The notes: a model not told the origin generated them from the letters alone. 64,000 nucleotides of DNA from an uncultured delta proteobacterium (GCA_963745835.1 CAVUZH010000020.1:32001-96000), one strand, 5' to 3'. Shown: positions 15,974 through 42,012, counted from the first letter of the stretch. A program made the numbers and translations.

Positions 15974-16427
15974 GAGGAGTCTGTTGGAGAACCGTGAAGT
16001 GATCGAGCAAGCGGGCACGGACTATTACGCGCTAATTCACAGGCAAAACTGGATCTATGCGCTATGCGACCGATTCGTTGACCTCCTGAAACATTGGAAC
16101 TATTGAACGATTGGAACAGTCTATTTGAGTGTTCCGACGTTGAACGCTTGAACGATTGAACGACCGCCAAGGAGGCTGCGCGTGTTCGCCTCGGATTTTC
16201 GTACGAAATCGCGATGGAAGACGCATTGCATGAGACTCAATAAAATTCTCGAATGAAAAGACATCGACGATGATCACAAAGCCATGATACTCGGAGAAAA
16301 CGCCAAGAGATTCTACCACCTCTAGCGTGAGATTCTCCCTGTTGCAGTGAACATGCGAGCGGAGTGATTAAGAAACCGTTGCCAGGCAGTCAAAGAATTC
16401 TGCTGTCGCAACGCAAAGACCTGACCC
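15974..16427 (+). mobile_element. Composite module copy A (unknown fragment + TTGAAC repeats + amidohydrolase C-terminus + Y1-transposase-like end)
   Basis: Encodes VFASDF..EIAMEDALHE..ILGENAKRFY*; ends AAGACCTGACCC 16416-16427; homologous copies at 34251, 37001, 38151, 41818. Confidence 0.8.
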
Positions 16428-16428
16428 T

Positions 16429-16650
16429 GTGGCTTGCGCACGCTTGCTGATCGATTGGGCCCTGGCGGCCGACGGCGGAATGAAATATTTCGCCGAAAAA
16501 TTCGGCCGCACGCCGACGCGAACCGGACTTGAAGAGCGCTTTCCCCTGCTTCGGGTGAACAACTATCTGGTGGTCAAGCCCGAGATCGTCGGCCCGAACT
16601 TCAAAGAATTTACCAACCTGTACAACGAGATCTTCGCGATCGGAAAGTAA
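16429..16650 (+). pseudogene. C-terminal fragment of extracellular solute-binding protein
   Basis: ARLLIDWAL..GRTPTR..; starts right after the TGACCC end, with no N-terminus. Confidence 0.6.
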
Positions 16651-16692
16651 AACAGCGCGGTCTAGGCTAAGTACTAAGTCAAGATTTGACCC

Positions 16693-17013
16693 TCAAAGTT
16701 GTTCGAGCGTCAGGCCGTCCGGACGAGCGATTCGATAGATGTAGTTCGCGGCCTTTCGGTCACCGCCGCCAGTCATGTATTCCGTCACAATATTCGGCTG
16801 TCCAGGAATATGCTTTTTCAAATACGGTAACATCGACTTCAGCCGCAAATCTCCCAACCCTCCGGGCTCCTGGCCAGCGATCACCGTGATGGTCTTGCCT
16901 TGATAAAAGAGCGCCTGCGGCAGTACCGGGTGCGGCTGGGATAAAAGGAAGAACGCCGATACGCACATGACTGCGCCGGCATTGATACCAACTTTGCGTT
17001 TCCCTGCATTCAC
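16693..17013 (-). pseudogene. N-terminal fragment of TTT (TctC/Bug-like) binding protein
   Basis: FYQGKTITVIAGQEPGG..KHIPGQPNI..PDGLTL; truncated at AAGATTTGACCC 16681-16692. Confidence 0.75.
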
Positions 17014-17312
17014 GACTGGGTCTCTTTGGCCAGGTCAAACGAGTGCACGCAGAAGACCGTGAGCCTCACAGAAACAATAGATTTCCGCGTGGCTATTGGT
17101 GACAAAGCCATGCCACATGGCTTTTGCTTAGATAGCTCAGCTGCAAGATATATTAAACGGCGGTCTGTGGCGGGTCCGCAAGTATCGACTTGTTCAAAAA
17201 TGCCGCGATGTTTTCCTCTTAAGCTGGATGGTAATGGAACCTCATAACTTTGCCGTTCTTATTAGAAGGCATTGTACTCGGTGCGCCGCGCTTCGGCGCT
17301 CACCGCGTTGTG

Positions 17313-18497
17313 TTACTCAAACTTCTCAAATGGCAGGCCGACATAATTTTCAGCAAACATAGTCTGCCCGGCATCCGATGCGGTCAAGTAATCAAGCTCG
17401 GAAATTTGTAAACGCCTGCTCATGGGATCATCGTCGAACCTATGCAGCAGGGATGTATACCACCAGGAAAAGCGGACCGCCTTCCAAACGCGGCGCAGCG
17501 CTGTGTCGGAATAGCGATCGAGCAAGTCAGTTCGTTTTTCTTTGTAATAGGCGAGCAGGGCGCGCGCGAGATAATAAACATCCGAAGCCGCAAGGTTAAG
17601 TCCTTTTGCGCCTGTGGGCGGGACGATGTGCGCCGCATCGCCTGCCAGGAAGAGCCGACCAAAGCGCATGGGTTCAGCGACAAAACTATGCAGGGGCGTG
17701 ATGCTCATTTCGAGACGGGCACCTGTTGTAACGGAATCAGCCGCATCAGAAGGAAGGCGGCGGCGCAGTTCATCCCAAAAAGCATCGTCGCTCCAATTAT
17801 TGACGTTATCGTCGGTATTGCATTGCACATAGTAGCGACTGCGGGTGTGCGAGCGCATACTGCACAACGCAAAGCCGCGTGCATGGTTGGCATAAAGCAG
17901 TTCATCCATGACCGGCGGCACATCAGAGAGAATTCCCAGCCAGCTGAACGGATACGTTTTTTCAAAAGTTTTGATTTTGTCCGCCGGAAGGCTTCGACGT
18001 GCAACGCCATGATAGCCGTCACATCCTGCGACAAAATCGCAGACGAGTTCCCAGCGTCGGCCGTTTTGCTCGTAGAGGATTCGTGGGGAATCCGTATCGC
18101 TTCCTTCCACCTTGATGGCCGGCGCGTCGAAGTGGACAATTCCCCCCGCCTCATCGATGTGCGCTTTCATCAAGTCGTGAGTGATTTCGGTCTGGCCGTA
18201 GACCATCACAACTTTTCCATTCGTATGTTCGGGAAAATCAAGGCGTTCGAGCCGGCCGTCAAATGCGACATTGATACCCTCGTGGATCAAACCCTCGCGA
18301 TCCATGCGTTCGCCCGCTTTGGCTTCCCGCAGCAAATCCGCCATACCTTGTTCAATCACACCAGCGCGAATGCGACCTAGTATATAGTCGCGGCTGCGAT
18401 TCTCGACGATCACCGTGTCAATTCCTTGCAGATGCAGCAATCTTGCAAGCAGCAGACCCGCTGGTCCTGAACCGATGATTCCGACTTGGGTTCTCAT
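17313..18497 (-). CDS. pobA: 4-hydroxybenzoate 3-monooxygenase
   Basis: GSGPAGL, RIRAGVIEQG, VYGQTE, GCDGYHG, GDAAHIVPPTGAKGLNLA, AENYVGLP. Confidence 0.95.
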   Translation of the reverse strand: MRTQVGIIGSGPAGLLLARLLHLQGIDTVIVENRSRDYILGRIRAGVIEQGMADLLREAKAGERMDREGLIHEGINVAFDGRLERLDFPEHTNGKVVMVYGQTEITHDLMKAHIDEAGGIVHFDAPAIKVEGSDTDSPRILYEQNGRRWELVCDFVAGCDGYHGVARRSLPADKIKTFEKTYPFSWLGILSDVPPVMDELLYANHARGFALCSMRSHTRSRYYVQCNTDDNVNNWSDDAFWDELRRRLPSDAADSVTTGARLEMSITPLHSFVAEPMRFGRLFLAGDAAHIVPPTGAKGLNLAASDVYYLARALLAYYKEKRTDLLDRYSDTALRRVWKAVRFSWWYTSLLHRFDDDPMSRRLQISELDYLTASDAGQTMFAENYVGLPFEKFE

Positions 18498-18647
18498 CCT
18501 TGTTCCTGTCGGCTATTCATTGCGAAGCGCAGGAATTTTCAAATTCCAATTCCTTCGATCGCTACTCTGACGAAATCGCCGTTTTGGAGAGCATTGCGCG
18601 GTCGATCTATTCAGGCGTTGCGATATTTTCCAAAGAGCACCGGACCC

Positions 18648-19880
18648 TTAAGTTAACTGGCTGGTTGCATGGGTCGAGGCTAAGACCTGCTCGACGATCG
18701 CCTCGGCGAACTGCGGATCGTTGATGTGGCAGTCGAACTCGGTCACCGGCACGGACGCCGGCAGGGCCTTCTTCAGCGCTTCCGAGAACACCGGGCACAG
18801 CGACGGGTCGTGCAAATGCCCTTCGGGGCTGTCGTGGTGCGAGAAGCCCTTCAGCGGCACGAAGAACGAGACCGGCCCCTTGGCGCTGTTGATCAGGCCG
18901 CCCATGTGCTTCGCCAACTTCTGCAGTTCGCCAGCCTCGGTGCGTACCGCGGTAATTGCCTGGTTGTGGATGTGATAACGTTTTCCCGGGAATTGTGTCT
19001 TCGCCATGTCGATGGGTCCGGACAGCATGAAGTCCGCGTTGCCCGGCGCGAAGATTACCGGCACGCCCTTCTCGAGCGCCGCTTTGGCGCGGTCCGGGCC
19101 GGCGCTGAACATGCCGTTGTTCAGATAATCGTTGATCTCGACCAGCGACACGTCGACGACCGCGCTGACGTCGCGCTCCCGCACGATCTGGTCCATCGCC
19201 ATGCCGCCGGTACCGAGCGTGTGGAACACCATCACCTCGTAGCCTTTGCTCTCCAGCGACTTGCGCACGCGCACGGTGCAGCGATCGGTGGTGCCGAGCG
19301 TCGTCATCGCGATCAGCGGCTTCGTTTCCGCGCGCACGGGCGAGTAGCTCTTCGCCATCGCGGCGGTGGCGATCGCCGCGTTGCGGAACGCGTCGCGGGT
19401 GATGCTGTTGAGCCCGGCGATGTCACATACCGGGTTCACCATGATGATGTCCTTCGCGCCGACGAACGGCCGGGTGAAGCCCGATGCCATCGTCGACACC
19501 ATCACCTTCGGCAGGCCGTACGGGAACGCCTGCATCACTATGCTGCCGAGCGTGGTGCCCATCGATCCTCCCACACCGATGATGCCGGCAATGCCATGCT
19601 TTGACTGGGCCTCCAGCGCGCACTTGACGGCTCCTTCGATCATCACTGCCTGGCACTTGCCTTCATGACGAAGGTCGCGAACCTCCTGGATCGTCTTGCC
19701 TGCCGCCGCGGCGACGGCCTCCGGCGCGATCTCGACGTTCGGATCGGTCGAATCGCGGATGCTGGCGTCGAGGTGAACGACGTCCACTCCTTCGGCCTCC
19801 AGTGTCTGCCGGACGAATTGCGCTTCCACTGCCTTGGTGTCGAGGGTCACGATCATCAGAACCTTGGGTTTGCTGCTCAT
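18648..19880 (-). CDS. Tm-1-like / UPF0261 family protein
   Basis: TLDTK, GVGGSMGT, PKVMVST, DIAGLN, VFHTLGTGG, HINDPQFA. Confidence 0.88.
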   Translation of the reverse strand: MSSKPKVLMIVTLDTKAVEAQFVRQTLEAEGVDVVHLDASIRDSTDPNVEIAPEAVAAAAGKTIQEVRDLRHEGKCQAVMIEGAVKCALEAQSKHGIAGIIGVGGSMGTTLGSIVMQAFPYGLPKVMVSTMASGFTRPFVGAKDIIMVNPVCDIAGLNSITRDAFRNAAIATAAMAKSYSPVRAETKPLIAMTTLGTTDRCTVRVRKSLESKGYEVMVFHTLGTGGMAMDQIVRERDVSAVVDVSLVEINDYLNNGMFSAGPDRAKAALEKGVPVIFAPGNADFMLSGPIDMAKTQFPGKRYHIHNQAITAVRTEAGELQKLAKHMGGLINSAKGPVSFFVPLKGFSHHDSPEGHLHDPSLCPVFSEALKKALPASVPVTEFDCHINDPQFAEAIVEQVLASTHATSQLT

Positions 19881-20016
19881 GGCCTGTCTCCTGTCGAATG
19901 AAAGAGCACTTCAAATCGCCGGCGCCGACGGTAATCGGCACCGAGCACCGTCTCGGCGCCCTTCAGATGATAGAAATCCGCTTTTGGGAGGCTCGGCGAC
20001 GGTACATCTGCATAGA

Positions 20017-20424
20017 TTACACAGTGCGACCCATGTCGAAGACGATCTCCCGTGAGATCTTCCCGTCGCGCATCTCAAAGATGTGAACCAGCCGCATTTC
20101 AATCTTGCTGCCGATTGGAAAATGCCAGTATCCATCTTTCGCCACCTCGAACGTGACGATGCTGTCATCCACCACACGCTCTTCGGTAGCGAAGCGCTGA
20201 AGAAACTGGAACTTTACATTACGCATGGACGCAAAGAGTTCCCGGTAATTCTTGGTAGTAGCTTCCTTCCCGGAAAAAGATCGATTAAGGCCATTCGGGG
20301 CAGGTGCTTCCCAAACGATGTCGTCAGTGAAAGTCTCGAGCGCCGTTTCGACCTCATTCAGCGCTTCGCTGTGGAAGTGGCTCTCCACAGCCGCCAGATT
20401 TTGGGTTATGCGATCCCTATCCAT
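20017..20424 (-). CDS. SnoaL/NTF2-like protein
   Basis: FTDDIVWEAP, HIFEMRDGKISRE. Confidence 0.8.
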   Translation of the reverse strand: MDRDRITQNLAAVESHFHSEALNEVETALETFTDDIVWEAPAPNGLNRSFSGKEATTKNYRELFASMRNVKFQFLQRFATEERVVDDSIVTFEVAKDGYWHFPIGSKIEMRLVHIFEMRDGKISREIVFDMGRTV

Positions 20425-20513
20425 CTCGTTCCCTCCATCTCTTGCTTTACTTCGTGTTGCCGCCAAACGCCCAGAGCGCTTTGTTTCAAGTCACACAATT
20501 ATTGCATCTGCTT

Positions 20514-20690
20514 TAAGTCGACACCCACCACGTGTTACCTCCCGGATCGATAAAGCTCGCTTGGCGCTCGTCGTACGGTATGTCTTCTGGCGGGACATGG
20601 TCGTGGCTCCAAGTCGAATGGCTCGGCCGTACACCGCATCTACGTCGTCAACGTAGACGTGGATCGACCCGACCCAGGGTGAAACATGAA
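20514..20690 (-). pseudogene. VOC/glyoxalase family fragment
   Basis: IHVYVDDVDAVYGRAIRLGA / ERQASFIDPGGNTWWVST across a frameshift. Confidence 0.65.
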
Positions 20691-20945
20691 ATGATGGGAA
20701 TTTGCTTTTCGGATCTCGACGCGAGTAATTGAACCCCGGCTCCATCAGCCGCTTGCGAGCCAGCTGTCAACAGCTCGACAGCGAGTCGGACCAAAAGAGC
20801 AGCCTCCATTCGTACGATTTGGGCGTACCGTATCCGATAAAGGTGGTCTCATACAACTATAATCGGCTTGAGTGGGCAGGAAACAACCTTTGGCTCAATC
20901 ATCGTAGCTGATCCAAGGATATGTCGCTGCGAAAAATACCTTCTC

Positions 20946-21165
20946 TCAGAGGACAACGGGTTTTTTGACGAGGCTTTCGCTAACGAAAGGGAAATTGTCC
21001 GCGAGCCAGGCGTCGATTCCGCCTTCGAGTGGGCGAACCCTGGTGATTCCTTTGGCTCGCAGCAGCAGCGCTACACGGGCGCTGGTCGCTTCGTTGGGTC
21101 ACGAACAGTAGAGAACGACGTCGCGATCCCGGGGAATCTCCGTAGCGCTCTTCGATCTCTTCCAT
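20946..21165 (-). pseudogene. Rhodanese-like domain fragment with in-frame UGA (CxU, putative selenoprotein remnant)
   Basis: EIPRDRDVVLYCS-TGA(21101-21099)-PNEATSARVALLLRAKGITRVRPLEGGIDAW...*; hairpin CAGCGC-ccgtgta-GCGCTG downstream of the TGA. Confidence 0.75.
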
Positions 21166-21239
21166 GGTTAACTCGCAGCCATGGGCTGGCGAAGTCGACA
21201 ATTGAAAGTTCTTTGGCCGTAAGATCAGAAACCAGCGAT

Positions 21240-21627
21240 GTAGACTTGCCTGACTCGACTAAGTCTTCTCCAAACGATTGGCTGATCTTCGAGGATCGGA
21301 ACCAAGAAACTTGCCACCCTGGGAAGAGAGATAACCCTGTTCAAACACCGCCTCGCGGATGTCCGATTGCAGGATGCGTGCTGTCGGGCAGCGATCGACC
21401 TCCAATAAAAAGTGGAAGTGATTCGAGATCAAGACATAGGTGTCGAGAGAGATAGCGCTAGAGCACGGTCGGAAGCGCTTCGATGAAGGCCCAATAGTCA
21501 CTTTGCCTGATAAAAATCTTTGGCCTTCATGCACCAGGGCGTCACGTGATGACAACCTTTAACATAACTCGCGGGTGACGCGGCATCCCCAGCCTATAGG
21601 ATTAGTCGCCTAGGCAAGTCTGACGCC
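21240..21627 (-). pseudogene. Decayed, internally deleted Y1/RAYT-like transposase with residual inverted ends
   Basis: MPRHPRV start near 21586, YVLISNHFHFLLEV (HUH); AGACTTGCCT at 21242 vs AGGCAAGTCT at 21612. Confidence 0.7.
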
Positions 21628-21959: not shown

Positions 21960-22226
21960 CCCAGGCAGAATGCCTGACGTTAAAAGAGATCGAATGGCGT
22001 TGACTACTTAAAACGAGGAAGTACCCCAACACCAGGCGCTCGTCGTGCGAGTTATTGAATCGATACAGCGGGCTTAAGCAACGGATGATCGGTGAGCGGT
22101 TCGGCGGGTAGGATGAGGGGTTGGCGCGGTCGCAGACGAGACGGGAAAGGATCGAGCCGGAACCGAAGATCCGAAAGTGGTTTCAGGATCTCTCGCGCTT
22201 AAGTACTTAAGTCAAGATTTGACCCC
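21960..22226 (+). pseudogene. C-terminal remnant plus right end of a Y1/RAYT-like element
   Basis: ELLNRYSGLKQRMIGERFGG matches ELMYRYSKISQEEIGKRFGG of 45545-46537; ends AAGATTTGACCCC 22214-22226. Confidence 0.72.
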
Positions 22227-24158: not shown

Positions 24159-24170
24159 ATTTACTGGCTC

Positions 24171-24297: not shown

Positions 24298-24311
24298 CAA
24301 AGAATCTAAAT

Positions 24312-25241: not shown

Positions 25242-25284
25242 GGTCGGCAGAAACCAACTGGGATTTTCCGATTTCGCGCACGCG

Positions 25285-25351: not shown

Positions 25352-25367
25352 AACGCGAGGAGAAAGC

Positions 25368-26423: not shown

Positions 26424-26451
26424 GATTAGTTTAAATTTTCGCAATGTTTTA

Positions 26452-26578
26452 CAGGCCGATCAAAAAGGCCCAGATGCGAGGCGCGCGATTTATCGACGAG
26501 CGTAGGCGTACGTTAATGGTTACGTTGGAGCGAGGCGGTTGAGCGCAACAAAGCAGGTGGACCTTTTTCATCGGCCTG
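26452..26578. mobile_element. MITE-like element with 17-bp TIR
   Basis: CAGGCCGATCAAAAAGG ... CCTTTTTCATCGGCCTG (16/17 match). Confidence 0.75.
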
Positions 26579-26590
26579 ATAGGAGGTTTT

Positions 26591-28951: not shown

Positions 28952-28995
28952 CCTTTTTGACGCATACGTAAACAGCGACAAGAACGGAGAATAAA

Positions 28996-29214
28996 AAGCA
29001 CGAAATCCGAAGCACGAAGCTCTAAACAAATTCGAATGATCCAAGCATGGCAAATTCCAAACGAGCCCAAATCGGATTCGAGGTTTTGGATTTTCTGGTT
29101 TTGGATTTATTTTGGCTCCGGTTTGTTTCGAATTTCGATATTCGGATTTCGGATTTACCCTTGTGGGGTTTGTTTCGGTCTGCGGGCCTCTTTCGTGCTT
29201 CGAATTTCGGATTT
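28996..29214. repeat. Heptamer-periodic palindromic element
   Basis: AAGCACG AAATCCG AAGCACG ... TTTCGAA TTTCGAT ATTCGGA TTTCGGA ... TTTCGTG CTTCGAA TTTCGGA. Confidence 0.75.
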
Positions 29215-29976: not shown

Positions 29977-29979
29977 AGA

Positions 29980-32057: not shown

Positions 32058-32968
32058 AACTAGCCGGCGCCGGAATATTACTCGCGGCCGGCTTCGCCGC
32101 AATGCCGCTTTTCACCGCGCGCAACGATCTCCTGAATCTCGGCGTACAAATTTTTCTTGCCGTCGCCCTGGCGCAAAGCTGGAACTTGATCGGCGGCTAC
32201 GCCGGACAAATTAATCTCGGCCATGCTGCATTTTTTGGCTTGGGCGCGTTGGTGACGCGCATGCTGTGGGTGAGCGGGATGCCGCTGCTTTTGTCGATCG
32301 CTGCCGGCGCCGTGGTCGCTACAGCGTTTGGATGCTTGATCGGAGTCCCAGCCTTTCGGTTGCGCGGCGCATACTTTGCCATCGGCACTCTCGGCTTGGC
32401 GGAAATTCTTCGCATCACGATCGGCAATGTTCTCCCCGAGATCTCCACGATCCGCGCCGCCGAGCTCGCTTCCTACAACATGCTGCCGCGCTACTATTTG
32501 ACTCTCGGATTGGCTGTTCTGTGCGTCGCCGTCGTCGCCTGGATGGTTCCCTCGCGCGTGGGACTAGGCATTCGCGCCGTGCGCGAGGATGAAATTGCCG
32601 CCGAAGCTACAGGCGTAAGCGCAGTGCGCCATAAACTTCTCGCTCTCGCCGTCTCCACGGCGATGGCCGGCCTCGCCGGCGGCGCCTTCGCCTACTACCA
32701 CGTGAGCTATTACCCGCAGCATACTTTTTCGCCGGTCTGGACTTTCGATGCCGTGCTGATGTCTTTCATCGGTGGCGTTGGCACCGTTCATGGTCCGGTG
32801 TTGGGCGCCCTCTTTTATGTGATCCTCAAGGAAGTGCTCGCGCTCCGCTGGGTCGAGTTCCACCTGATCATTTTCGGCGTGTTATTCATCCTGGTCGTGC
32901 TGTTCCTGCCCGGTGGCTTGGTCGAAGCGTGGAACCGCGCCCGCCGGCTGATTGCCCGGCCACGCTGA
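32054..32968 (+). CDS. livM: BCAA ABC permease
   Basis: SWNLIGGYAGQINLGHAAFFG, RLRGAYFAI, AVREDE, PGGL. Confidence 0.9.
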   Translation: MKLAGAGILLAAGFAAMPLFTARNDLLNLGVQIFLAVALAQSWNLIGGYAGQINLGHAAFFGLGALVTRMLWVSGMPLLLSIAAGAVVATAFGCLIGVPAFRLRGAYFAIGTLGLAEILRITIGNVLPEISTIRAAELASYNMLPRYYLTLGLAVLCVAVVAWMVPSRVGLGIRAVREDEIAAEATGVSAVRHKLLALAVSTAMAGLAGGAFAYYHVSYYPQHTFSPVWTFDAVLMSFIGGVGTVHGPVLGALFYVILKEVLALRWVEFHLIIFGVLFILVVLFLPGGLVEAWNRARRLIARPR

Positions 32969-32989
32969 GCTTGGTACTGGATGCAACCT

Positions 32990-33180
32990 CGGTCGGCCAA
33001 TGAATTTTACCGCCGGAAATTCACCGGCGCCGATCCTCGACAAATCGATTCTCTGGACAATTTCATAAGCTGCCGTTAACCACCAAAGACGAGCTGGTTG
33101 AGGATCAACGAAAACATCCGCCGGTCGGCACCGACTTGACCTTTCCGGCAGATCGTTACGGTCCGCATCCACCAAACTTC
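32990..33180 (+). pseudogene. Phenylacetate-CoA ligase-like N-terminal fragment
   Basis: FYRRKF, KLPLTTKDELVEDQ, GTDLTFP, RIHQTS; cut just before the TIR at 33192. Confidence 0.65.
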
Positions 33181-33191
33181 GCGGGCGATTA

Positions 33192-34241
33192 GGGACGCTG
33201 TTGACTAACTGGACAAACTAGAATAGAGAGTGGAGAGAATCGATAAGGGCTACAGCGTATGCCGAGGCAGGCTAGACTGGATAGTCCCGGGACACTGCAC
33301 CATGTAATGATCCGAGGGATTGAAAAGAAGCGGATCGTCCTTGACGAGCAAGACCGAAAAGACTTTGTGCGCCGATTGGGTTTATTGGCCGTGGAAACGA
33401 AGACGGCGATCTATGCATGGGCGTTAATGAGCAACCATGCTCATTTGCTGGTTTGCAGCGGGACTGAGGGATTAGCCAAGTTTATGCGGCGATTTTTGAC
33501 CGGTTACGCGGTGAGTTATAACCTGCGCCATCGCCGGCATGGTCATCTTTTTCAGAACCGTTACAAATCGATGGTGTGCGACGGCGGCAGCTATTTCACC
33601 GAGCTGGTGCGCTACATCCACCTAAACCCGTTAAGAGTGGAGTTGGTAAAGGATTTGAGGCAACTGGAGAGATATCCCTATTGTGGACATGGAACAATCT
33701 TGGGAGCGCAATCAAACGCCTGGCAAGACCGCGACAGCGTGTTGGCCCAGTTTAGCCAACGCGAAGCGGAAGCGAAGGAGGCATACCGGCGCTATATTGC
33801 CGAAGGAGTCGTGCTGGGGCGGCGGCCGGAGCTGGTTGGGGGGAGTGGATCGGTTGGCGAATGGTTTGCGGTGAAATCCCAGCGGCGACGCAGGATTGAA
33901 GAGTCAACTGATGAGCGGATTTTGGGCAGCGGAGCATTTGTAAAGCGTGTTCTAAAAGAAGCAGATGCGCGGACACTCCGGCAAAACGCCTTCAAGAAAA
34001 CCAAACGCTATGCGGAGCGTGTCGTTGCCGCGGCCTGCAAGAAAGACGGCATATCGCTAACAGAACTCCGAAGCGGGAGCCGCCGTGGGAAACTGCCCGC
34101 CGTGAGAGTGAAGATCGTTCAGGGGCTTAGTGGAGGATTATGGCGTGCCCATCGCCGAGGTCGCTCGCCAAGTGGGTATCTCGACATCTGGAGTTTCAAA
34201 GATTCTGACACGAAGTTTGTCCAGCTAGTCAACAGCGTCCC
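33192..34241 (+). mobile_element. TIR-bounded Y1/RAYT-like element 1
   Basis: 28-bp TIR GGGACGCTGTTGACTA[A/G]CTGGACAAACT at 33192-33219 and 34214-34241; TA on both outer sides. Confidence 0.88.
33259..34228 (+). CDS. HUH Y1 (RAYT-like) transposase with C-terminal HTH; +1 frameshift near 34122
   Basis: HHVMIRG, MSNHAHLL, HLFQNRYKS, RYIHLNP; removing one G at 34122-34125 restores LVEDYGVPIAEVARQVGISTSGVSKIL..* with the stop inside the TIR. Confidence 0.88.
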
Positions 34242-34250
34242 TAGCTGCCG

Positions 34251-34638
34251 TACTCTTACCCGCTAAATTCACAGGCAAAAACTGGATCTATGCGCTATGC
34301 TTTGGGTCATGGCAGTCATGCGCGAGAGATCCGGCCACCACGAATCAGAACGCTTTTGAACATGGTCTAGCGGGAATCGCGCAACCCCGAGTAAACGGCG
34401 CACTGCCGAACGATTCGTTGCTCCTGAAATGTGAAATTATTGAATCGATTGGAACTGTCCTTTTGAGTGTTCCGACATTGAACCGTTGAACGCTTGAACG
34501 GTTTGAACCGATCGACGCGTGTTTGCGTCGGATTTTCCGCACGAAATCGCGATCGAAGACGCACTGCATGAGGTCAATGAAATTCTCGAACGGAAAAATA
34601 GAAACCTAAGCACAAAACCATGATATATCTGACCTACC
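34251..34638 (+). mobile_element. Composite module copy B
   Basis: ATTCACAGGCAAAA.CTGGATCTATGCGCTATGC, TTGAAC repeats, VFASDFPHEIAIEDALHEVNEILERK; ends ATCTGACCT. Confidence 0.75.
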
Positions 34639-34800
34639 GTTATGATCGAGAAGCCTCTATGAGCATAGGCCATGGGTTGAAACAATTTTTGCTGGCACTC
34701 CAGCAGAACAAATTACGCAAAACGAGACACGCGCCGACGGTTGAAAACAACGGCCAAGGTTGAGCTGGTTGCCAGTTAGGCGACAAGGAAGGCGATAGTA

Positions 34801-35967
34801 ATGCTTGATGGTTACCAAATATTCGATGCCGATGCGCACACGATGATGAGCCCTAGGATGTGGGCCGACTTGCCTGAAGATTTCGCCGCTCGTCGACCCC
34901 GCGCGGTGCGGATTTCCGACGAAAGCGGACTCGGGTATTGGAACACGGGTTGGTATGTGGATGGTCGATTGGAGCCGCATCCGTTTGGACCAGGAGCCCA
35001 GTCTGCCAATACGCCTGCCATGGTACTGGATGAATTCAAACCGGAACCGGGGAAACCTCGCGCAATGATCGGCTCCACTGATTTCGCGGTACCCGCGGCG
35101 AGCCTCGATCTATCGGACCCGGAAGCACGGTTGCAAAATCTTGAGCGCATGGCGGTGGACATTCAGATGCTTTTCCCATCCACTCTCTATGCTCATATGA
35201 CTTCCGATCCCCGCCTCGATGCGGCTCTCTGTCGTTCGTACAATCGCTATGTCGGCGGTCAATGTCGGTCGGCGCCCAAACGGCTCAAATGGGCCGGGCT
35301 CCTGCCGATGCGCGATCAAGGCGAGGCCATCAAGGCTCTGGACGAGATGCAACATCTAGGGGCGAGCGCCGCGGTGGTATTCGGAACGGTCGGAGAACGG
35401 CTCCTCTCCGACCCGACTTTTACACCCATATGGGACGAATTCGCGCGCAGAACGCTGCCACTTTGCATACACATGGGTATGAGCTATCCGCCGTTTCAGG
35501 ACCTCTGCCATTCAATTCAGGACGCCAATATGATCGCCAAGGCACTGCCCGCGCAGCTCGCCTTTGTCGCCGTTGTCGGTAATAAGATGCTCGACCGCTA
35601 TCCGAGTCTCCGCGTCGCCTTTCTTGAATTCGGCGCCGAATGGATCTTTTACATGTTCGGCCGGATGGAGCATTACCTAAAGGTGAATCGCCGGCGTATG
35701 CCCAGCGCCGCGGCGCTGCCGCAAAAAGATGTCGAGGATTATGCCAAGTGCGGGAGAATTTTCATCGCTCCTGAGTCCGACGACGCCATGCTCGCTCAGG
35801 AGATCGCGCTGCTCGGCGCCAATCAGATTCTTTTCTCTTCGGACTTTCCGCACGGCGAAGGACGGGAAAACGCCGCCCGCGGTATCCTCGATCGCACCGA
35901 TCTCACCGCGGAACAGAAGCGCAAGATTCTTTACGACAATCCGGTCAATTTATTTGGATCGCCATAA
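34801..35967 (+). CDS. Amidohydrolase_2 family protein
   Basis: DADAH, LFPS, CIHMG, FLEFG, FSSDFPH. Confidence 0.9.
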   Translation: MLDGYQIFDADAHTMMSPRMWADLPEDFAARRPRAVRISDESGLGYWNTGWYVDGRLEPHPFGPGAQSANTPAMVLDEFKPEPGKPRAMIGSTDFAVPAASLDLSDPEARLQNLERMAVDIQMLFPSTLYAHMTSDPRLDAALCRSYNRYVGGQCRSAPKRLKWAGLLPMRDQGEAIKALDEMQHLGASAAVVFGTVGERLLSDPTFTPIWDEFARRTLPLCIHMGMSYPPFQDLCHSIQDANMIAKALPAQLAFVAVVGNKMLDRYPSLRVAFLEFGAEWIFYMFGRMEHYLKVNRRRMPSAAALPQKDVEDYAKCGRIFIAPESDDAMLAQEIALLGANQILFSSDFPHGEGRENAARGILDRTDLTAEQKRKILYDNPVNLFGSP

Positions 35968-35996
35968 TCTCGATGAAAACGGCCAAGGAGTCTTCC

Positions 35997-36974
35997 ATGA
36001 AGTGGTTTCGTCGATTTGCCTACTCTGCGGTCGTAACCTTCACGCTTCTTAGCGCGGGGCACACCGCATGGGCACGCACGGTCAAGGTCGGCATTCCTGG
36101 TCACAACGTTACGCAAGCAGCTTTCTATGTCGCCAAGGAGCGGGGCTGGTATCGGGATGAAGGTTTGGATGTCCAGCTGATCATGATGCCCGCGCCGGTG
36201 AGCAATTTGGCGTTGATCGCAGGCAACGTAGATTTCACTTCCGTTCCCACCGCAGCGATTACGGCTGCGTTGCGCGGCGCTCCGCTCCGGGTGCTCTTCA
36301 CAAGCTTCGATAAACCACTTTTCTGGCTCTACGCCAGGCCGGAGATCCGCGAGCTCAAGGAGCTGAAAGGCAGAAAGATCGGGACCAGCGGACTCGGCGC
36401 GGCGGAAACGCTGTTGCGTGAATTCCTTCAAAAGCACGGTTTTGACGTCAGCCGAGATATCACTTTATTGAACACGGGAGCGGATTCAGTTCGTTATGTT
36501 TCTGTTGTGGCGGGCTCGACCGATGCAACTGTGATTACGTTGCCGTGGAATTTTTCCGCCGAGGATGCAGGCCTGCGCAGTCTGGTTTCCTTTACGAAAG
36601 AGGACATGGTGCAGCTCACGGGAAGCGTGGTCGCCCGTGAAGGCATTCTGCGATCCGAACCCAGCGTGGTGGAAAAATTCATCGCCGCTACCATGCGCGG
36701 GCACTTGGCCCTGCGTGAAGATCGTACCGAAGCGATCGCCACGCTGACTCGCAACGTAAAAATTTCCGATGCTCTCGCCGCTAGAAGCTACGATGTGATT
36801 CGCCCGGCTTTGACGCTCGACGGTGGACTCAATGAAGAGTCTCAGCGGAAGGCTCTCGATCTAATTTTACAAGCGCAAAGCATCAAAGATGCGCCCCCGG
36901 CAGAGCGCTTCTTCGATTTTGCGATTCAAAGACGCGTGAGCGCCGATCTTAAGAAAAAAGGCTGGAAACCGTGA
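35997..36974 (+). CDS. NitT/TauT-type ABC substrate-binding protein
   Basis: VAKERGWYRDEGLDV, ELKGRKIG. Confidence 0.85.
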   Translation: MKWFRRFAYSAVVTFTLLSAGHTAWARTVKVGIPGHNVTQAAFYVAKERGWYRDEGLDVQLIMMPAPVSNLALIAGNVDFTSVPTAAITAALRGAPLRVLFTSFDKPLFWLYARPEIRELKELKGRKIGTSGLGAAETLLREFLQKHGFDVSRDITLLNTGADSVRYVSVVAGSTDATVITLPWNFSAEDAGLRSLVSFTKEDMVQLTGSVVAREGILRSEPSVVEKFIAATMRGHLALREDRTEAIATLTRNVKISDALAARSYDVIRPALTLDGGLNEESQRKALDLILQAQSIKDAPPAERFFDFAIQRRVSADLKKKGWKP

Positions 36975-37000
36975 AGATACCAACGGTGCAATCGACCGGC

Positions 37001-37214
37001 TCGCGATGGAAGACGCACTGCATGAGATCAATGAAATTCTCGAACGGAAAGATATTCAATGGTAAGCGCAAAGCCATGATACTCGGTGAAAACGCTAAGG
37101 GATTCTACAAACTCTAATGTGAGATTCCCGTTGCTCTGAAGATGCGAGCAGGGTGATTAAGAAAGCGCTATCACGGCCAAATAATTCTGTTGGTGCAACA
37201 CAAGACCCGACGCC
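37001..37214 (+). mobile_element. Composite module copy C
   Basis: AMEDALHEINEILERKD..ILGENAKGFYKL*; ends AAGACCCGACGCC; the module's upstream piece recurs at 37293-37340. Confidence 0.78.
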
Positions 37215-37367
37215 ATGGCTGTTTCCTCTCACTTTTGACCGTGAAAAGTTAGTAGAGTTGGGCAAGTCTGACACGGGGGCGTTCTCCTTCTCGAGGAGTC
37301 TGTTGGAGAACCGTGAATTGATCTAGCGAGCGGGCACGGCATTCACCGATTGACCGAGGGCGAATGC

Positions 37368-37391
37368 TGCTGTACAGTTAGATGTACAGCA
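37368..37391. promoter_or_regulatory. Probable TA operator palindrome
   Basis: TGCTGTACA-gttaga-TGTACAGCA just upstream of the antitoxin RBS. Confidence 0.6.
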
Positions 37392-37398
37392 AAAGGAG

Positions 37399-37704
37399 GT
37401 GGGTTTGAAGCAATTATCGCTAACCGAAGCGCGCGCCAAATTGAGTAGCCTGGTGGCGGAAGTCGACAAGGGAAATGGGCCCATCGCGATTGCGCAGCGG
37501 TCGAAGGTCAAGGCACTGCTCGTCGATCCCGAATGGCATGGCCGGGTAGAGGAAGAACTCGCCCACTACCGAACTCGCTCGAGGCAATCGCCGTTAAAAC
37601 TGCGGGGCAGCATGACATTGACGGGAGACCTGGACGAAGCTCTCCAGGATCTCAAGAAAGAAAGAGAGCAGTCCCTCCAGGGCGTCATTGCCGCGCTCAA
37701 GTGA
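37399..37704 (+). CDS. Phd/YefM family antitoxin
   Basis: SLTEARAKLSSLV..PIAI; GTGA overlap with the PIN gene. Confidence 0.82.
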   Translation: MGLKQLSLTEARAKLSSLVAEVDKGNGPIAIAQRSKVKALLVDPEWHGRVEEELAHYRTRSRQSPLKLRGSMTLTGDLDEALQDLKKEREQSLQGVIAALK

Positions 37705-38102
37705 TTTACGTTACCGATATGCACCCGCTGGTTTTCTGGTCATCAAATCGTAGACGGCGGTTGGGAAACCGCGCACGGCGTATCTTGCAAGAGACGGAGC
37801 AGGGCAAACACTCCATCATCGTGCCGATTGTCGTTCTGGAAGAAATCAACCGGCTGGTGGAAAGAAAAATCGTTCGCTTGGAGGTTCCGTTTCGTCGCTG
37901 GGCCGAAGAGCTTGAACGCTCGCCCAACTTTCAAGTCCAGGCTTATACGTTGGAAGTTTTGCTGCAATCGGTCTCGCTCGCGGCAATCCGCGACCCGGCG
38001 GATAGAGCCATCGTCGCAACAGCCCGCCAGCTCCGCTGCCCGCTCATCACCGCCGATGACCTTATTCGAGACGGTGAGTGGGTCGATACGGTTTGGGACT
38101 GA
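37701..38102 (+). CDS. VapC/PIN toxin
   Basis: YVTDMH, VLEEI, DPADRAIVATA, LITAD. Confidence 0.85.
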   Translation: MIYVTDMHPLVFWSSNRRRRLGNRARRILQETEQGKHSIIVPIVVLEEINRLVERKIVRLEVPFRRWAEELERSPNFQVQAYTLEVLLQSVSLAAIRDPADRAIVATARQLRCPLITADDLIRDGEWVDTVWD

Positions 38103-38150
38103 CCGCCGCGAGATTATTCTCTTGCATCGATAGAACGGTCCGGAGAGGTC

Positions 38151-38392
38151 CGTGTTTGGGTCCGAGTTCCCGCACGAAACGCGATGGAGACGCATTGCAT
38201 GAGATCAATGAAATTCTCGAACGAAAAAATGTCAAGGATAGGCACAAAGCCATGATACTCAGAGACAACGCCAAGAGATTCTACAACCTCTAGTGTGAGA
38301 TCCTCCCTGTTGCACTGAATATGCGAGCGGAGCGAGTAAGAAACTATTGGGAGGCGTCAAAAGTTCTGTTGTCGTAATGCAAGACCTCACCC
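38151..38392 (+). mobile_element. Composite module copy D
   Basis: DALHEINEILERKNVKDRHKAMILRDNAKRFYNL*; ends AAGACCTCACCC. Confidence 0.8.
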
Positions 38393-38398
38393 TGCGGC

Positions 38399-38534
38399 TT
38401 GCCCGGCCGCGTGCTGGTAATGCTGCAACAGTTCGCCGGCGTCGCCTATCGCGGTAGTAGTCTCGCGTCTAATCGGGTTCACAATCGTGCATCGGGATCC
38501 CAAGGACCGAGCTTGAGCACCCGGGTCATGCACG
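38399..38534. repeat. Decayed gene fragment repeated at 12147-12283
   Basis: See 12147; begins just after the module D end. Confidence 0.75.
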
Positions 38535-38544
38535 GGGCTGAGAG

Positions 38545-38908
38545 AACCCTTAGTCTTTTTCCATCGACCGTTTCCTTGGTAGAAGGATCGTGGCTCAAGC
38601 CCTACGCGCAGTCAGTTAGACTGTCGAGCTTCACGTCGAGCACTTTGCTCCGGACGCTAAAGACGAAGTTTGGCTGACTGAAGTCGGGAGCCGTGGTTGC
38701 AGATCGTATCCGCTACAGAGTCACTGAACGAACGGCGCTCGCATCCGGGAGAGTCAGGGCTTTTGTGCTGACTTCAAGCCAACTGCTAGGGGCCGAAATG
38801 GCTACTGGCTTTGTAAAAGCACTTCCACGGATGAAGCGGCTTATCGCCAACCACACTCCTCCATTCATTGGCCGGGTTTCAAGAAATGGGAAAGTCTCAC
38901 TGTTGTGA
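38545..38908 (+). pseudogene. PIN-like (VapC45/DUF5615-type) toxin remnant
   Basis: IDRFLGRRIVAQALR*..HFAPDAKDEVWL / RIRYR..E..RAFVLTS..PPFIGRV with a stop and a frameshift. Confidence 0.6.
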
Positions 38909-39060
38909 GCCGTCGCCGAAATCGTCAAGAGGAATACGCTCGTATAAGCACCCGCTGGGACATAAGCGAGAATTTCATACTGCGAGATTGACTTGCCATC
39001 GGTAAGTTTCTCCCCTCTTCGTGCGAATGCCTTGACCATAGCCGGCCGGTACAGTACTTT

Positions 39061-39086
39061 AAGTAGACCAGAATTTTGGTCTACTT
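39061..39086. promoter_or_regulatory. Probable TA operator palindrome
   Basis: AAGTAGACCA-gaattt-TGGTCTACTT perfect 10-bp IR before the RBS. Confidence 0.65.
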
Positions 39087-39099
39087 GGAGGATGCGAGC

Positions 39100-39393
39100 A
39101 TGTCCAAAACAATGCCCATTTCAGAGGTTAAGACACGGTTGCCTGAGCTCGTCTCCGGCGTCGAGGAGCGGGAAGAAGAGATCGTCGTCACGCGTAACGG
39201 TAAGCCTGCGGCTGTATTGGTGAATTACAACGAGTACGAGCGCTTGAAAGCCACGCTGGATGTTTTGAGCGATCCGGTATCAATGAGGCAGATCGCTCAG
39301 AGTAAGAGCTTCTACGCTAAAGGGCGAGAAGGAGAATCCTTCGAAGCTGTGTTTGGCGATTCTCTGGTTACGCGTAAACGTCTAAAGAAATAA
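39100..39393 (+). CDS. Phd/YefM family antitoxin
   Basis: ISEVKTRLPELV..IVVTRNGKPAAVLV..EYERL. Confidence 0.88.
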   Translation: MSKTMPISEVKTRLPELVSGVEEREEEIVVTRNGKPAAVLVNYNEYERLKATLDVLSDPVSMRQIAQSKSFYAKGREGESFEAVFGDSLVTRKRLKK

Positions 39394-39728
39394 TGGCCGT
39401 CTACCGGCCCGATATCCCACCGCACGTGGCGGAAATCATCCGCCACTTACCTCCGGAATTAAAGCAGCGCATCAAGCGAGCAATCCGATCTTTAAGCGCC
39501 GATCCGTCCGCGGGTGAGCCTCTTATCGCAGAACTATCTGGACTCTGGAGCTTCAAAGTCAGACGATTTCGCATCATTTACGAATTGCATCGTAAAGCGC
39601 GGGTTCTCAGGATCTTCGCCATCGGCCATCGGCGGGAGGTTTATGAGCAACTGGCGGACCGATTGCGCCAGGTCGAGAGAGCGGAAATAGTGTGTTTGCA
39701 ACGAAGAGATAAATTCTTGCGTGTGTGA
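39393..39728 (+). CDS. RelE/ParE family toxin
   Basis: DPSAGEPL..LSGLWSFKVRRFRIIYE..IGHRREVY; TAATG coupling. Confidence 0.87.
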   Translation: MAVYRPDIPPHVAEIIRHLPPELKQRIKRAIRSLSADPSAGEPLIAELSGLWSFKVRRFRIIYELHRKARVLRIFAIGHRREVYEQLADRLRQVERAEIVCLQRRDKFLRV

Positions 39729-39874
39729 GAGCGCCCGTGCTTGCCGGGCGCATTTGGATCAACAAAGGCAACTTTTCAACCCAACTCGAGCGAGCCCGCG
39801 ACCACTTGGACTTCGATTCTTTCTCATCGATGTCTTTTAGAATTCATCAACTCCAATTTGACGCTAAGCCCTCC

Positions 39875-40132
39875 TCACACACCTGGCCAGGCTGGACTGA
39901 TTTGACTCGAGAGGCGGTAATCTAGCGCGAGGACTGCAAAGCCTCTGTCCGCCAGCCAGGGTCCCCAACTCTGCTTTTGTGAACCACGCAGCCAAGCGCC
40001 ACCGTGTAAACAAAGCAGTGCCGGATGCATACCGCCACTCGCAGGCAGATAGACGTCGGCGCAAAGATCTCCCTGCGGCCCGCCACCGTAAGGCACATCG
40101 ACGCGGATTTGAACGCTGGTATTGTTGTTCAT
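39875..40132 (-). pseudogene. Truncated alpha/beta hydrolase (HGG esterase)
   Basis: ADVYLP, LHGGAW, LDYRLS, then premature end. Confidence 0.7.
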
Positions 40133-40144
40133 ATCACCGATATC

Positions 40145-41272
40145 TCAGGCGACTTTGTATTCCTTAATCGCATCCTCGTTTAACTCTAGACCGAGTCCAG
40201 GCTTTTCGGTGAGAGTGATCCAACCGTTCACCGGTTCCGGCACCTCCTTGTAGACGACGTTCCAGGTAAGCCAATTGGTGATGTGAACTTCGGCGCGCCA
40301 GCCATTGGGCACCGCGGCGTGCAAATGGACGTCGAAATGGTGACCGTTGCCGATGGGCAGGTTGAAGGCATGGGCCAGGGCGGCGGCTTTCATGCCCATG
40401 GTGAAACCGCCCACCACGAGCACATGGAAATTCAGGAAGTCTACCGAATCTTGCTTCACCAACTCGGCAAGCTTTGAAAGATTATCGTATTGACCGGCGG
40501 CAATCGGAATACTCGTCTGCTTGCGCAGCTGGGCCAGCAGATGTGGATCGTTATACACAATCGGCTCTTCGAACCACATCAGGTTATAGGGCTCGAGGCG
40601 CTTGCACCAGCGCACGGCGGCTTCGAGTTTCATTAGACAGTTGGCGTCTACCATCAACTCCGCCTTGTCGCCGACAGCCTCGCGCACCGCTCTAACTCTT
40701 GCTTCGTCTTCCGCTGGGTCGTCTTCGCGATGCTCGCCGCTGGCACCGGAGGGATCAGTGGCGCCGCGGATGTTCGATCGGCCGACCTGGATTTTGAGGC
40801 GTGTTTCGCCGCGGCCTGCCCAATATCTTGCCGCTTCCACCAATTCCTCGCGGCTGTAGGCGCGCAAACCGAAAGTAATGTAAGCCGGAACTGATTTCTG
40901 TGCGCCGCCGAGAAGACGCCAGACCGGCACTTTGTAAAACTTTCCCTTGATGTCCCAGAGCGCCACGTCGATGGCACTTACCGCGAAGTTCCAGACCCCG
41001 GCATGGGCGCGATTGTTGAATTTCCACAGCATCTGATGCATCAAGCGCTCGTGTTCCAGAGGCGTCTGGCCTTTCAAGAAGGGGACAAGGTCTTTGAGAA
41101 TGAAAGCCGCGGTGGCGGAATACATGGGGCCGGCGATCTGCGATAGGCCAATGATACCGTCATCAGTCGTGATTTTTAGTATGCGCGCTCCGGTTCGCAC
41201 GGGCTGTTTGAAGAGCGGCGGTGTAACTTGGATATTTTGCAGCTCGATAATTTCGATTTCGGCAATCTTCAA
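40145..41272 (-). CDS. Mandelate racemase/muconate lactonizing enzyme family
   Basis: SAIDVALWDIKGK, LMVDAN, WFEEP, EKPGLG; TTG start after AAGGAG. Confidence 0.9.
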   Translation of the reverse strand: MKIAEIEIIELQNIQVTPPLFKQPVRTGARILKITTDDGIIGLSQIAGPMYSATAAFILKDLVPFLKGQTPLEHERLMHQMLWKFNNRAHAGVWNFAVSAIDVALWDIKGKFYKVPVWRLLGGAQKSVPAYITFGLRAYSREELVEAARYWAGRGETRLKIQVGRSNIRGATDPSGASGEHREDDPAEDEARVRAVREAVGDKAELMVDANCLMKLEAAVRWCKRLEPYNLMWFEEPIVYNDPHLLAQLRKQTSIPIAAGQYDNLSKLAELVKQDSVDFLNFHVLVVGGFTMGMKAAALAHAFNLPIGNGHHFDVHLHAAVPNGWRAEVHITNWLTWNVVYKEVPEPVNGWITLTEKPGLGLELNEDAIKEYKVA

Positions 41273-41400
41273 GATTAGTCTCCTTCGGTCTTTGGGGGCT
41301 ACCATCGGAATTAACAGGTAGCGCGACGAGTAAGCAACAGGTATAAACGATCTTGATTAAAAGAGGAAAGCAGAGGATCAGGTATTAGAGATTTGACCCC

Positions 41401-41782
41401 ATCACCGCATTGCCATCACGCCTTCACGCGTTTCTTCCTGGAAATGTGCATCGACCAGGTGAGATTTATGGGAGGGCTCGTGCAACCGGATCGTTTGGGT
41501 ATCCGCATCCGCATTTGGGCCGAGGAAGAGATTCGACTCGGCCATCTTCCTGCGAAATCAGGAAATATTCTCGAAGCCGTGCTCTATCGCGGTGAGCTGC
41601 CGCGCGGTGAAATGGCGGCAATAGTCGGCACGGGAGACCGCCAAGCGCGCCGGATCATCTCAGCTCTGGTTGACAAGGGTGTATTGCAATCCGAAAGCGC
41701 GCGCGCGCCGCTGCGCCTCGCATTTCCAGCTGCGCTCGCGTCGCGCTGGATGCCGGGACTTTTCCCTGAAAGAATCGAATAA
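41401..41782 (+). pseudogene. C-terminal fragment of a Fic family protein
   Basis: FTRFFLEMCIDQVRFM..LYRGELPRG..RQARR..LRLAFP..WMPGLFP; begins at GAGATTTGACCCC 41388-41400. Confidence 0.72.
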
Positions 41783-41817
41783 GACTGGATAACGCCTTCC
41801 CTCGGTTTGCCGCTGCT

Positions 41818-42012
41818 GCGCACGAAATCGCGATGGAAGACGCATTGATTGAGATCGATAAAATTCTCGAACGAAAAGATTTCAACGATAAGCACGAAGC
41901 CATGATACTCGGGTAAAAGCGAAGAGATTCTACAAAGAAGCCAGCGGAGTGATTAAGAAAGCGTTGTCAGGAGGTCAAATAATTCTGATGTCGCAACGCG
42001 TCACCTGACCCC
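41818..42012 (+). mobile_element. Composite module copy E
   Basis: CACGAAATCGCGATGGAAGACGCATTG...GCGGAGTGATTAAGAAAGCG...GTCGCAACGC..ACCTGACCCC. Confidence 0.78.

Follow-up and report, generated by a model that had tools for sequence, protein, structure and literature searches.

The closest described relatives of the locus reported here are the TIRtrons or TIRYT elements (Di Nocera et al. 2013, PMC3733652; subclass 2.1 in Quentin et al. 2018, PMC6006769), which encode a RAYT-like Y1 transposase with a C-terminal helix-turn-helix (Bac_DnaA_C, HTH_23 or HTH_28) and are bounded by terminal inverted repeats (TIRs) that share the motif GGGGWSAS; such TIRs also occur solo and in groups, mostly behind genes. 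REPINs and their RAYTs (PMC3116915) are comparable as short non-autonomous repeats, for which mobilisation in trans by a single-copy Y1 enzyme is presumed and which persist in a lineage for a long time. In the parts of PMC3733652 and PMC6006769 drawn on here, the spread of RAYT and TIRYT repeats is a matter of genomic inference only, and assays are called for. The locus is a stretch of 64,000 nt, referred to as the window, from an uncultured delta proteobacterium (GCA_963745835.1, CAVUZH010000020.1:32001-96000), which contains five copies of a short chimeric module made of gene ends and a solo TIR. We give about an even chance to the reading that this module was multiplied by copying anchored at the solo TIR of a TIRYT/TIRtron Y1 (HUH) element.

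The window corresponds to C20:32001-96000 of a 7.28-Mb assembly of 25 contigs (G000); contigs, other genomes and loci are designated below by C, G and L numbers. A repeat finder detected five direct repeats, all on the + strand and within 26 kb, at the places where the initial annotation had put them. When each copy was used as a blastn query against the whole assembly, no match other than these five was obtained (pairwise identity 73-86%), so the module forms a local array and is not a dispersed repeat. It is a three-part chimera, consisting of the 3' end of an amidohydrolase gene, the 3' end of an RNase HI gene and a TIR-bearing piece. The copies, in which the amidohydrolase remnant starts at 16180 (A), 34517 (B), 37001 (C), about 38125 (D) and 41805 (E), are as follows:

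16180-16444, + strand: copy A; amidohydrolase remnant at 16180-16325, with its stop codon at 16323-16325
16326-16345, + strand: copy A, 20 nt of the amidohydrolase gene's own downstream sequence
16346-16381, + strand: copy A, RNase HI 3' remnant
16382-16427, + strand: copy A, TIR-bearing piece, then a spacer of about 17 nt common to copies A and D
34517-34638, + strand: copy B, amidohydrolase remnant only, without tail
37001-37214, + strand: copy C, amidohydrolase remnant and tail, starting 26 nt past the stop codon of an NMT1-like gene
38125-38407, + strand: copy D, remnant and tail, TIR core at 38380-38392 and spacer, starting at most 22 nt past the stop codon of a PIN gene
41805-42025, + strand: copy E, with a 33-nt internal deletion around the stop codon; tail, TIR core at 42000-42012 and spacer
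15973-16162, + strand: short modules m1 to m3 upstream of copy A, outside the amidohydrolase/TIR module proper

The boundaries first proposed for copies A and B took in the unrelated modules m1 to m3. Of these, m1 (15973-16020) occurs a second time at 37292-37339 with 94% identity, m2 (16018-16067) has a counterpart at 34249-34300, and m3 (TTGAACG-rich, about 16094-16162) has one at 34446-34500. The two 48-nt m1 repeats bracket 21.3 kb that are absent in genome G005, where the order is SDR, m1, toxin-antitoxin pair, copy D; this arrangement reflects either a deletion between the m1 repeats or an insertion by recombination at m1.

Parts of the window were present in 20 of the 21 public sequencing runs listed (soil, rhizosphere and winery). 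Among contigs of four of these runs, the only joints traceable by inserted letters are 34300>34446 and 34500>41822; both carry sequence of copy A and derive from another module copy. No clean alternative junction was found in the contigs of these four runs, the remaining joints being unexplained, and one contig of 2144 nt corresponds to 34217-36360 with zero differences.

The amidohydrolase likeness of the first part is significant, in agreement with the initial annotation. In tblastx the copies show 44-67% identity to paralogue C-termini over 24-36 aa, and in tblastn every window copy maps within residues 280/295-341 of an intact 346-aa orthologue (A about 295-339, B 295-321, C 304-341, D about 280/285-341, E 302-332). 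This intact orthologue in G027 and an orthologue in the unpublished genome G012 both match the remnants, and orthologues from other genera of the family and order have 65-83% protein identity. Although the assembly contains more than 100 Amidohydro_2 paralogues, blastn and tblastx revealed no close donor within it, and an intact gene of the donor lineage was not found in this genus (best protein match 49%). The search for a full-length donor did lead to an intact donor-lineage gene of 341 codons on contig C14 of G098 (L119:5701-6722(-)), which is 88.6% identical to the module over 405 nt and matches PF04909 with an E-value of 1.7e-28, identifying the remnant as Amidohydro_2. There, the gene is followed by another gene and not by the module tail. 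The Amidohydro_2 gene lying intact between copies B and C (34801-35967, + strand; identified with Pfam in a scan of 30 open reading frames (ORFs) at 12.9-43.2 kb of the window) is of a different subfamily; with 26% identity to the orthologue of the module it was rejected as the donor, as already held by the initial annotation.

Direct reading of the sequence confirmed that four copies carry a tail, of about 100 nt, which copy B has lost; the tail of copy A ends in ...AAGACCTGACCC and those of C, D and E in close variants. Homology to the amidohydrolase orthologues stops at the stop codon. The origin of what follows could be traced with the longest copy, on contig C13 of G092 (locus L079), which covers residues 219-341 in frame and without a stop, and whose tail is about 97 nt longer than the common one. 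Joined to the initial ~36 nt of the common tail, these additional bases are the 3' end of an RNase HI gene (...GNELADRMAMLGAQ.KEKELRLYQE.MDIPTLLKMRAG, then stop), 95 nt being continuous with the ends of RNase HI genes in many genomes at E-values down to 1e-16. The gene is present in several genera and is single-copy in most of the matching genomes; its representative in G007 (L105) matches RNase_H (E 1.5e-30) and Cauli_VI. The RNase HI part of the common tail comprises the last six codons, the stop codon and ~17 nt downstream. Hence, the peptide 'ASGVIKK', previously taken for the C-terminus of a Y1 transposase, is the RNase HI end plus downstream bases read out of frame. In the unpublished genome G089 the RNase HI gene directly follows a Phd/PIN pair, in G097 the two are 1.5 kb apart, and copy D occupies the same place behind PIN. 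Therefore, the RNase HI piece may be native to the Phd/PIN locus, to which the amidohydrolase end would have been brought.

The other half of that earlier proposal, that the tail contains the right end of a Y1 element, finds support in its last ~22-26 nt, which resemble the right TIR of TIRYT-type Y1 elements. The final ~45 nt of the tail end in TGTCGCAACGCAAGACCTGACC, and the terminal 22-mer agrees at 19 of 22 positions with the inverted repeats of an intact Y1 gene at C2:18696-19588. With as many as three mismatches permitted, a 20-mer search gave five non-self matches, as compared with ~0.4 expected by our own arithmetic. Three lie at ends of the C2-element family, namely both termini of the C2 element and an end fragment at C13:636154 that was also recovered by a profile of Y1 3' ends. 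The fourth match, a solo end at C2:8643, differs from the tail terminus by one mismatch in 20. The GGGGWSAS motif is matched at all eight positions in two of 11 module tails, at seven in five and at six in four.

Two Y1 elements and a solo TIR in the window bear on this resemblance:

33180-34246, + strand: TIRtron 'W', with a Y1_Tnp ORF at 33259-34266 and 30-nt inverted repeats at 33190-33219 and 34214-34243
45493-46540, + strand: intact TIRtron '3', with a RAYT-like Y1 ORF (45545-46552) and 21-nt TIRs
22213-22225, + strand: solo TIR core, sharing its subtype with that at 16680

The Y1 proteins (297-335 aa) are RAYT-like. Their best NCBIfam model is REP_Tyr_transpos (NF047646), with 56-71 bits and thus below its cut-off of 80, whereas transpos_IS200 (NF033573) gave 17 bits against a cut-off of 55. 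Pfam Y1_Tnp was matched with E-values of 2.3e-8 by the ORF at 33259-34266 and 6.6e-13 by the C2 element. A C-terminal helix-turn-helix is suggested by HTH_23 in the C2 protein (E 4.3e-5; 23.6 bits against a cut-off of 24.6); the other two proteins were judged by eye only. No GTAG REP (repetitive extragenic palindrome) sequences or hairpins were seen flanking the Y1 genes; instead, the flanks are TIRs, of 30 nt in W, of 20 nt at C2:18696 and C2:19588, and of 21 nt at 45493 and 46540. The left end of the C2 element reads GGGGTCAG and carries GGGGWSAS. Given the RAYT-like scores, the weak C-terminal helix-turn-helix and the inverted repeats, the Y1 elements appear to fit the TIRYT/TIRtron class.

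Element W, of which contigs C13 and C5 carry copies at 97-98% identity besides truncated ones, abuts module m2 of copy B with its right outer end. Its Y1 ORF changes frame near 34127-34129, before the helix-turn-helix, and ends in ...IAEVARQVGISTSGVSKILTRSLSS and a stop. One base fewer is present there in the C13 copy and in contigs from each of the four public runs, so the W copy of the window is probably a frameshift mutant or an assembly error. Element '3' is of the type cognate to the solo TIRs at 16680 and 22213. Its transposase stop codon lies inside the right TIR (...AAG ATT TGA CCC), which parallels the ...AAG ACC TGA CCC of the module tail. The TIR core motif was found seven times in the window, against 0.5 expected and with none of 100 shuffles reaching seven; five of the cores are solo, all on the + strand, and the other two bound element '3'.

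Some further TIR-like sequences were encountered. A back-to-back TIR dimer with the look of a REPIN-like doublet and near the TIR type of the module is present at C15:25563-25610 (GGGGCCAGGTCTTGC...GCAAGACGCGACCCC). At 12335-12420, behind the end of a decayed ion-channel gene, we noticed by eye a TIR-like TTGTGGCACGCCAACACCTGGCC and a W-type TIR-like CTGGTCAACAGCGTC. The unpublished genome G018 has a W-type TIR behind rnhA.

Counted at an identity of at least 84% across 90 genomes of the family, 16 module copies are present in six genomes (five in G000, three each in G001, G004 and G092, and one each in G005 and G088). The pairwise identities are star-like, the long in-frame copy of G092 being nearest to all others (84-93%), and the unique three-part junction common to all tail-bearing copies shows that these have a single ancestor. 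At the 5' side, breakpoints were mapped at no fewer than eight positions (7041, 7102-4, 7120, 7238-41, <=7264-7, 7271, 7292 and 7297 in L079 coordinates), among which no shared motif was found. The TIR end, in contrast, is kept in 11 copies, lost in two (B and G92_b) and cut by contig ends in three, most of the relatives' genomes being fragmented; of the 13 copies whose 3' end is informative, 11 thus terminate at the TIR core or within about 14-18 nt beyond it. The ragged 5' ends and fixed 3' end described in the initial annotation are therefore borne out across genomes, with the reservation that the 3' boundary is not exact to the base.

A fixed 3' end, a ragged 5' end, a length of 60-570 nt and co-orientation with genes could also be produced if 3' fragments of mRNA, protected by a TIR- or REP-like 3' end and decaying from the 5' side, were reverse-transcribed and the cDNA integrated. 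This shape is the only support for such retro-copies, which we regard as very improbable, since there is no reverse transcriptase among the 30 scanned ORFs and the consensus RNA fold is weak and without covariation support; no mechanism for integrating cDNA of this kind is known in bacteria. As a related point, REPs are described as lying mostly downstream of genes and many of them as being transcribed (PMC3733652, in the part used here). A diversity-generating retroelement was considered as well and rejected, the differences between copies not being confined to adenines as judged by eye.

Projection onto the in-frame relative revealed frame-breaking indels in all five window copies: -1 and +1 plus an in-frame stop in A, -1 and a premature end in B, +1 in C, three -1 in D, and -3 and -1 in E. 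Copies with orthologous flanks (D and G5_a; G1_a and G4_a) are 80-82% identical, and the flanks of D and G5_a 91%, so the module is less conserved than its own surroundings, which indicates old sequence evolving neutrally. These data leave barely any credit for the alternative of a functional module that acts as a structured RNA or encodes a small protein of ~47 aa. Its identity of 73-92% across genomes could be taken in favour of function; the frameshifts and the faster divergence of flank-orthologous copies speak against it, as does an RNAalifold consensus of -17.8 kcal/mol over 272 columns with a covariation term of +0.75. Rfam gave no match at gathering thresholds over the whole window and none at E <=1 over 36900-42300, and the possibility raised at the outset that the repeat is a structured non-coding RNA thus finds no support. 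The copies have no present function; they are a dead chimera in neutral decay.

Behind a TIR, the sequence is often that of another gene's end, truncated on the 5' side. Three cases lie next to module copies:

16445-16692, + strand: 5'-truncated 3' end of an SBP_bac_6 gene (73 codons) after copy A, with the solo TIR CAAGATTTGACCC at 16680-16692
38408-38530, + strand: 5'-truncated piece of the 3' end of an Ion_trans_2 channel gene, after copy D
42026-42384, + strand: 5'-truncated end of an Amdase-like gene (to 42213), then ~150 nt and TIR2 at 42364-42376, after copy E

A full-length gene of 396 aa in G001 (L016:311-1501(-)) ends in sequence with 93% identity to the SBP_bac_6 fragment. The ion-channel piece has 86.6% identity to a longer copy at 12153-12279 of the window and 78% to C22:103634-103716, inside a full ORF. 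For the Amdase-like fragment the identity is 86.6% to C2:6126-6476, the end of a full-length 242-aa gene (C2:5586-6468), and in G005 the fragment has another 5' end, beginning at a different codon of the gene. The same Amdase-like end with TIR2 was found at C2:6126-6476 and C21:2147-2497 with identical match statistics, possibly because of overlapping contigs or two strains.

TIRYT genes themselves also occur as TIR-anchored fragments of varied length. On contig C22 (95198-111997), four co-oriented C2-type 3' fragments (444, 297, 400 and 94 nt) with the same TIR end lie within 17 kb. This C22 region also has an ion-channel gene piece in common with the window. Fragments of the W type measure 419, 356 and 215 nt, and the longest is 97.9% identical to its parent and starts 33 nt past a stop codon. 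Several copies start a few tens of bases past a co-oriented stop codon or directly after another TIR, and copy E and copies in G001 and G092 also start close behind ORF ends. Among the 11 distinct junctions in G000 (from 13 rows, three alternative rows for copies A and B, at 1280-1600 nt, being counted once), four follow a co-oriented ORF of 150 aa or more at a distance of 16-33 nt, compared with 3.2% of random positions. Furthermore, G000 and G004 share an ABC operon with 97.6-98.6% identity and diverge completely ~10-20 nt past the stop codon of the ABC permease (window 32968-33180; G004 L087:1-1560), where G004 carries a 5'-truncated TIRYT fragment; the same variant is on a contig of run X6.

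These observations have to be weighed against ordinary decay, that is, segmental or tandem duplication of a chimeric block followed by independent deletions and insertions, with a passive TIR. Five copies in a single orientation within 26 kb are what such duplication would leave; m1, m2 and m3 are duplicated too, G005 is without the 21 kb between the two m1 copies, copy B has lost its 3' end, and copy E is internally deleted. However, the DNA between copies is unrelated from interval to interval, and the 3' end, which 11 of the 13 informative copies retain, would have had to survive every one of at least seven deletions. Ordinary decay also leaves the left/right asymmetry unexplained, and it does not predict that the same layout is found for other genes and TIRYT genes on other contigs, one copy at 97.9% identity, or that junctions are enriched just past stop codons. 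We therefore consider it rather unlikely, if well worth keeping in view; should it be true, the locus would merely be a well-resolved example of intergenic junk.

A number of results weigh against copying from the TIR. The copies are clustered and not dispersed. Six of them share a further 8-18 nt past the TIR core before the DNA becomes unrelated, as duplication followed by decay would allow, so the 3' end is not a clean transposase cut. Fragments truncated on both sides exist (the ion-channel piece at 38408-38530 and the G004 TIRYT fragment). Ordinary recombination is active in this region too, as is evident from the duplicated m1 to m3 and from the absence of 21 kb in G005. A profile of the last 130 nt of six Y1 element ends did not find the tails (E >10), and sharing is hence limited to the terminal repeat; no intact TIRYT whose TIR is of precisely the tail's subtype was found, and a genome-wide search with the 14-mer TIR core (up to two mismatches) gave 60 matches, no excess over the 45-109 obtained with shuffled patterns. 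Empty sites were not recovered either: in no searched genome were the sequences on the two sides of a G092 copy, or of the recent fragment at C13:573102, contiguous. The G000 bin has 9.3% contamination and is larger than its congeners, so C2 and C20 do not necessarily come from one cell, and the genus label of G092 differs, yet its ABC operon is 92-95% identical; taken together, contigs may stem from more than one strain. Finally, as far as PMC3733652 and PMC6006769 go in the parts used, nothing is known experimentally about TIRYT action.

Another way to obtain co-oriented repeats is an att-like recombination site, the module, at whose 3' end cassettes or small islands would be inserted successively. 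The genes between the copies are relevant here:

35973-36974, co-oriented: NMT1-like gene, upstream of copy C
37399-38102, + strand: Phd/YefM antitoxin and PIN toxin pair (Pfam), between copies C and D
39076-39728: second toxin-antitoxin pair, Phd/YefM with ParE, between copies D and E
41393-41782, + strand: ORF directly after a TIR-like end (..AGATTTGACCCC, 41385-41397), with a weak HTH_Crp_2 match only

Judged by eye, the last ORF may be a C-terminal fragment of a Fic-family protein, and orthologues of the Phd/YefM-PIN pair are present in other genomes. Unrelated genes occupying 1.2-18 kb between co-oriented repeats, including the two toxin-antitoxin pairs, would suit inserted cassettes. So would the arrays of relatives, which are likewise co-oriented and spaced by 1.4-5 kb (three copies within 5.2 kb in G001, two separated by 1.6 kb in G004 and two separated by 5 kb in G092), and the sharp change of sequence at or near the TIR. 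Nevertheless, all 13 Phage_integrase matches are on other contigs, leaving C20 with no tyrosine recombinase, and attC-like inverted core sites were not seen by eye, which also distinguishes the locus from integron arrays. In addition, the DNA past a TIR is often a truncated gene and not a cassette, neither end of the array has an intact target gene, and the repeats decay neutrally, as the lower identity of flank-orthologous copies relative to their flanks indicates. Insertion at an att-like site is thus improbable.

Elsewhere, the window contains many TctC, NMT1 and Peripla_BP_6 binding-protein genes. Between TctC and Meth_synt_2 genes, at 26449-26582 and again at about 28995-29156, there is an interspersed repeat of ~130 nt, dozens of copies of which occur at 77-84% identity in G001, G004, G005, G006 and G092; it is unclassified and resembles a miniature inverted-repeat transposable element or a REP.

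Returning to copying anchored at the TIR, we envisage that a break or nick at the TIR would start DNA synthesis or strand transfer, which would proceed into the DNA 5' of the TIR and abort after ~60-570 nt. In a first route, the TIRYT enzyme might mobilise DNA in trans from a single end. In a second, a TIR behind a gene would be cut, and the end would invade a TIR elsewhere, copy the neighbouring DNA and be rejoined. Such gap repair would also account for the shape of the copies and for their landing sites behind genes, where TIRs already sit. The two routes are not separable on the present data; the second better explains the slightly ragged 3' boundary. The wider claim, that one TIR is enough for RAYT-like TIRYT enzymes to mobilise or copy host DNA, with 5'-truncated 'transduplicates' behind genes or beside TIRs as the product, is possible, and we offer it with clear reserve. 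No paper linking TIRYT or RAYT to gene fragments or one-ended events turned up in our literature searches.

Compared with known systems, the module shares features with several and coincides with none. IS91, ISCR and Helitron elements use Y2 or Rep-helicase enzymes, and their varying end is the termination end. Like the module, they have one fixed and one variable end, carry host fragments and form chains of fragments in a single orientation (Helraiser, PMC4778049, in part). They differ in their terminal motifs, the module ending in ...CTGACCC, and no Y2 or Rep-helicase gene is present among the 30 scanned ORFs, the Y1 proteins being RAYT-like; the Helitron/ISCR kinship first suggested for the module thus finds no support.

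IS200/IS605 elements encode a small TnpA, lack inverted repeats and end precisely. The 'peel and paste' scheme described for them (PMC5027513, in part) resembles the present case in the Y1 HUH fold and in a strand-specific mechanism acting on single strands. A mechanism of this type could explain the single orientation of the copies. The Y1 elements related to the module differ by their inverted repeats and by their low transpos_IS200 score.

Abortive gap repair, or synthesis-dependent strand annealing, after excision of a transposon is known from P elements. One-sided copying primed from the element end and a variable abort length are what the module has in common with it, and our literature searches gave no description of it for bacterial REP or TIR elements. 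The rolling-circle-like copying of the initial annotation is unsupported, and the slightly ragged 3' boundary agrees no less well with abortive gap repair.

REPINs differ from the module in that they are hairpin doublets of fixed length without host DNA (PMC3116915, as far as used), and the Y1 proteins studied here differ from RAYTs by scoring below the NCBIfam cut-off and by the lack of visible GTAG REPs. TIRtrons remain the nearest relatives. In the descriptions of PMC3733652 and PMC6006769 covered here, the TIR repeats stand alone, whereas in the present case host gene ends of 60-570 nt are attached to one side of a solo TIR, in many copies whose inner ends are ragged. If a single TIR suffices to drag along or copy neighbouring DNA, the reaction would have a defined substrate, namely one end, a defined direction and preferred landing sites just behind genes or beside other TIRs, and the copies would be the first visible footprint of TIRYT/RAYT action in vivo. 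It would then represent a new mechanism of gene-fragment shuffling in bacteria, a process so far well documented only for eukaryotic transposons, and a bacterial counterpart of gene-fragment capture by Helitrons or Pack-MULEs.

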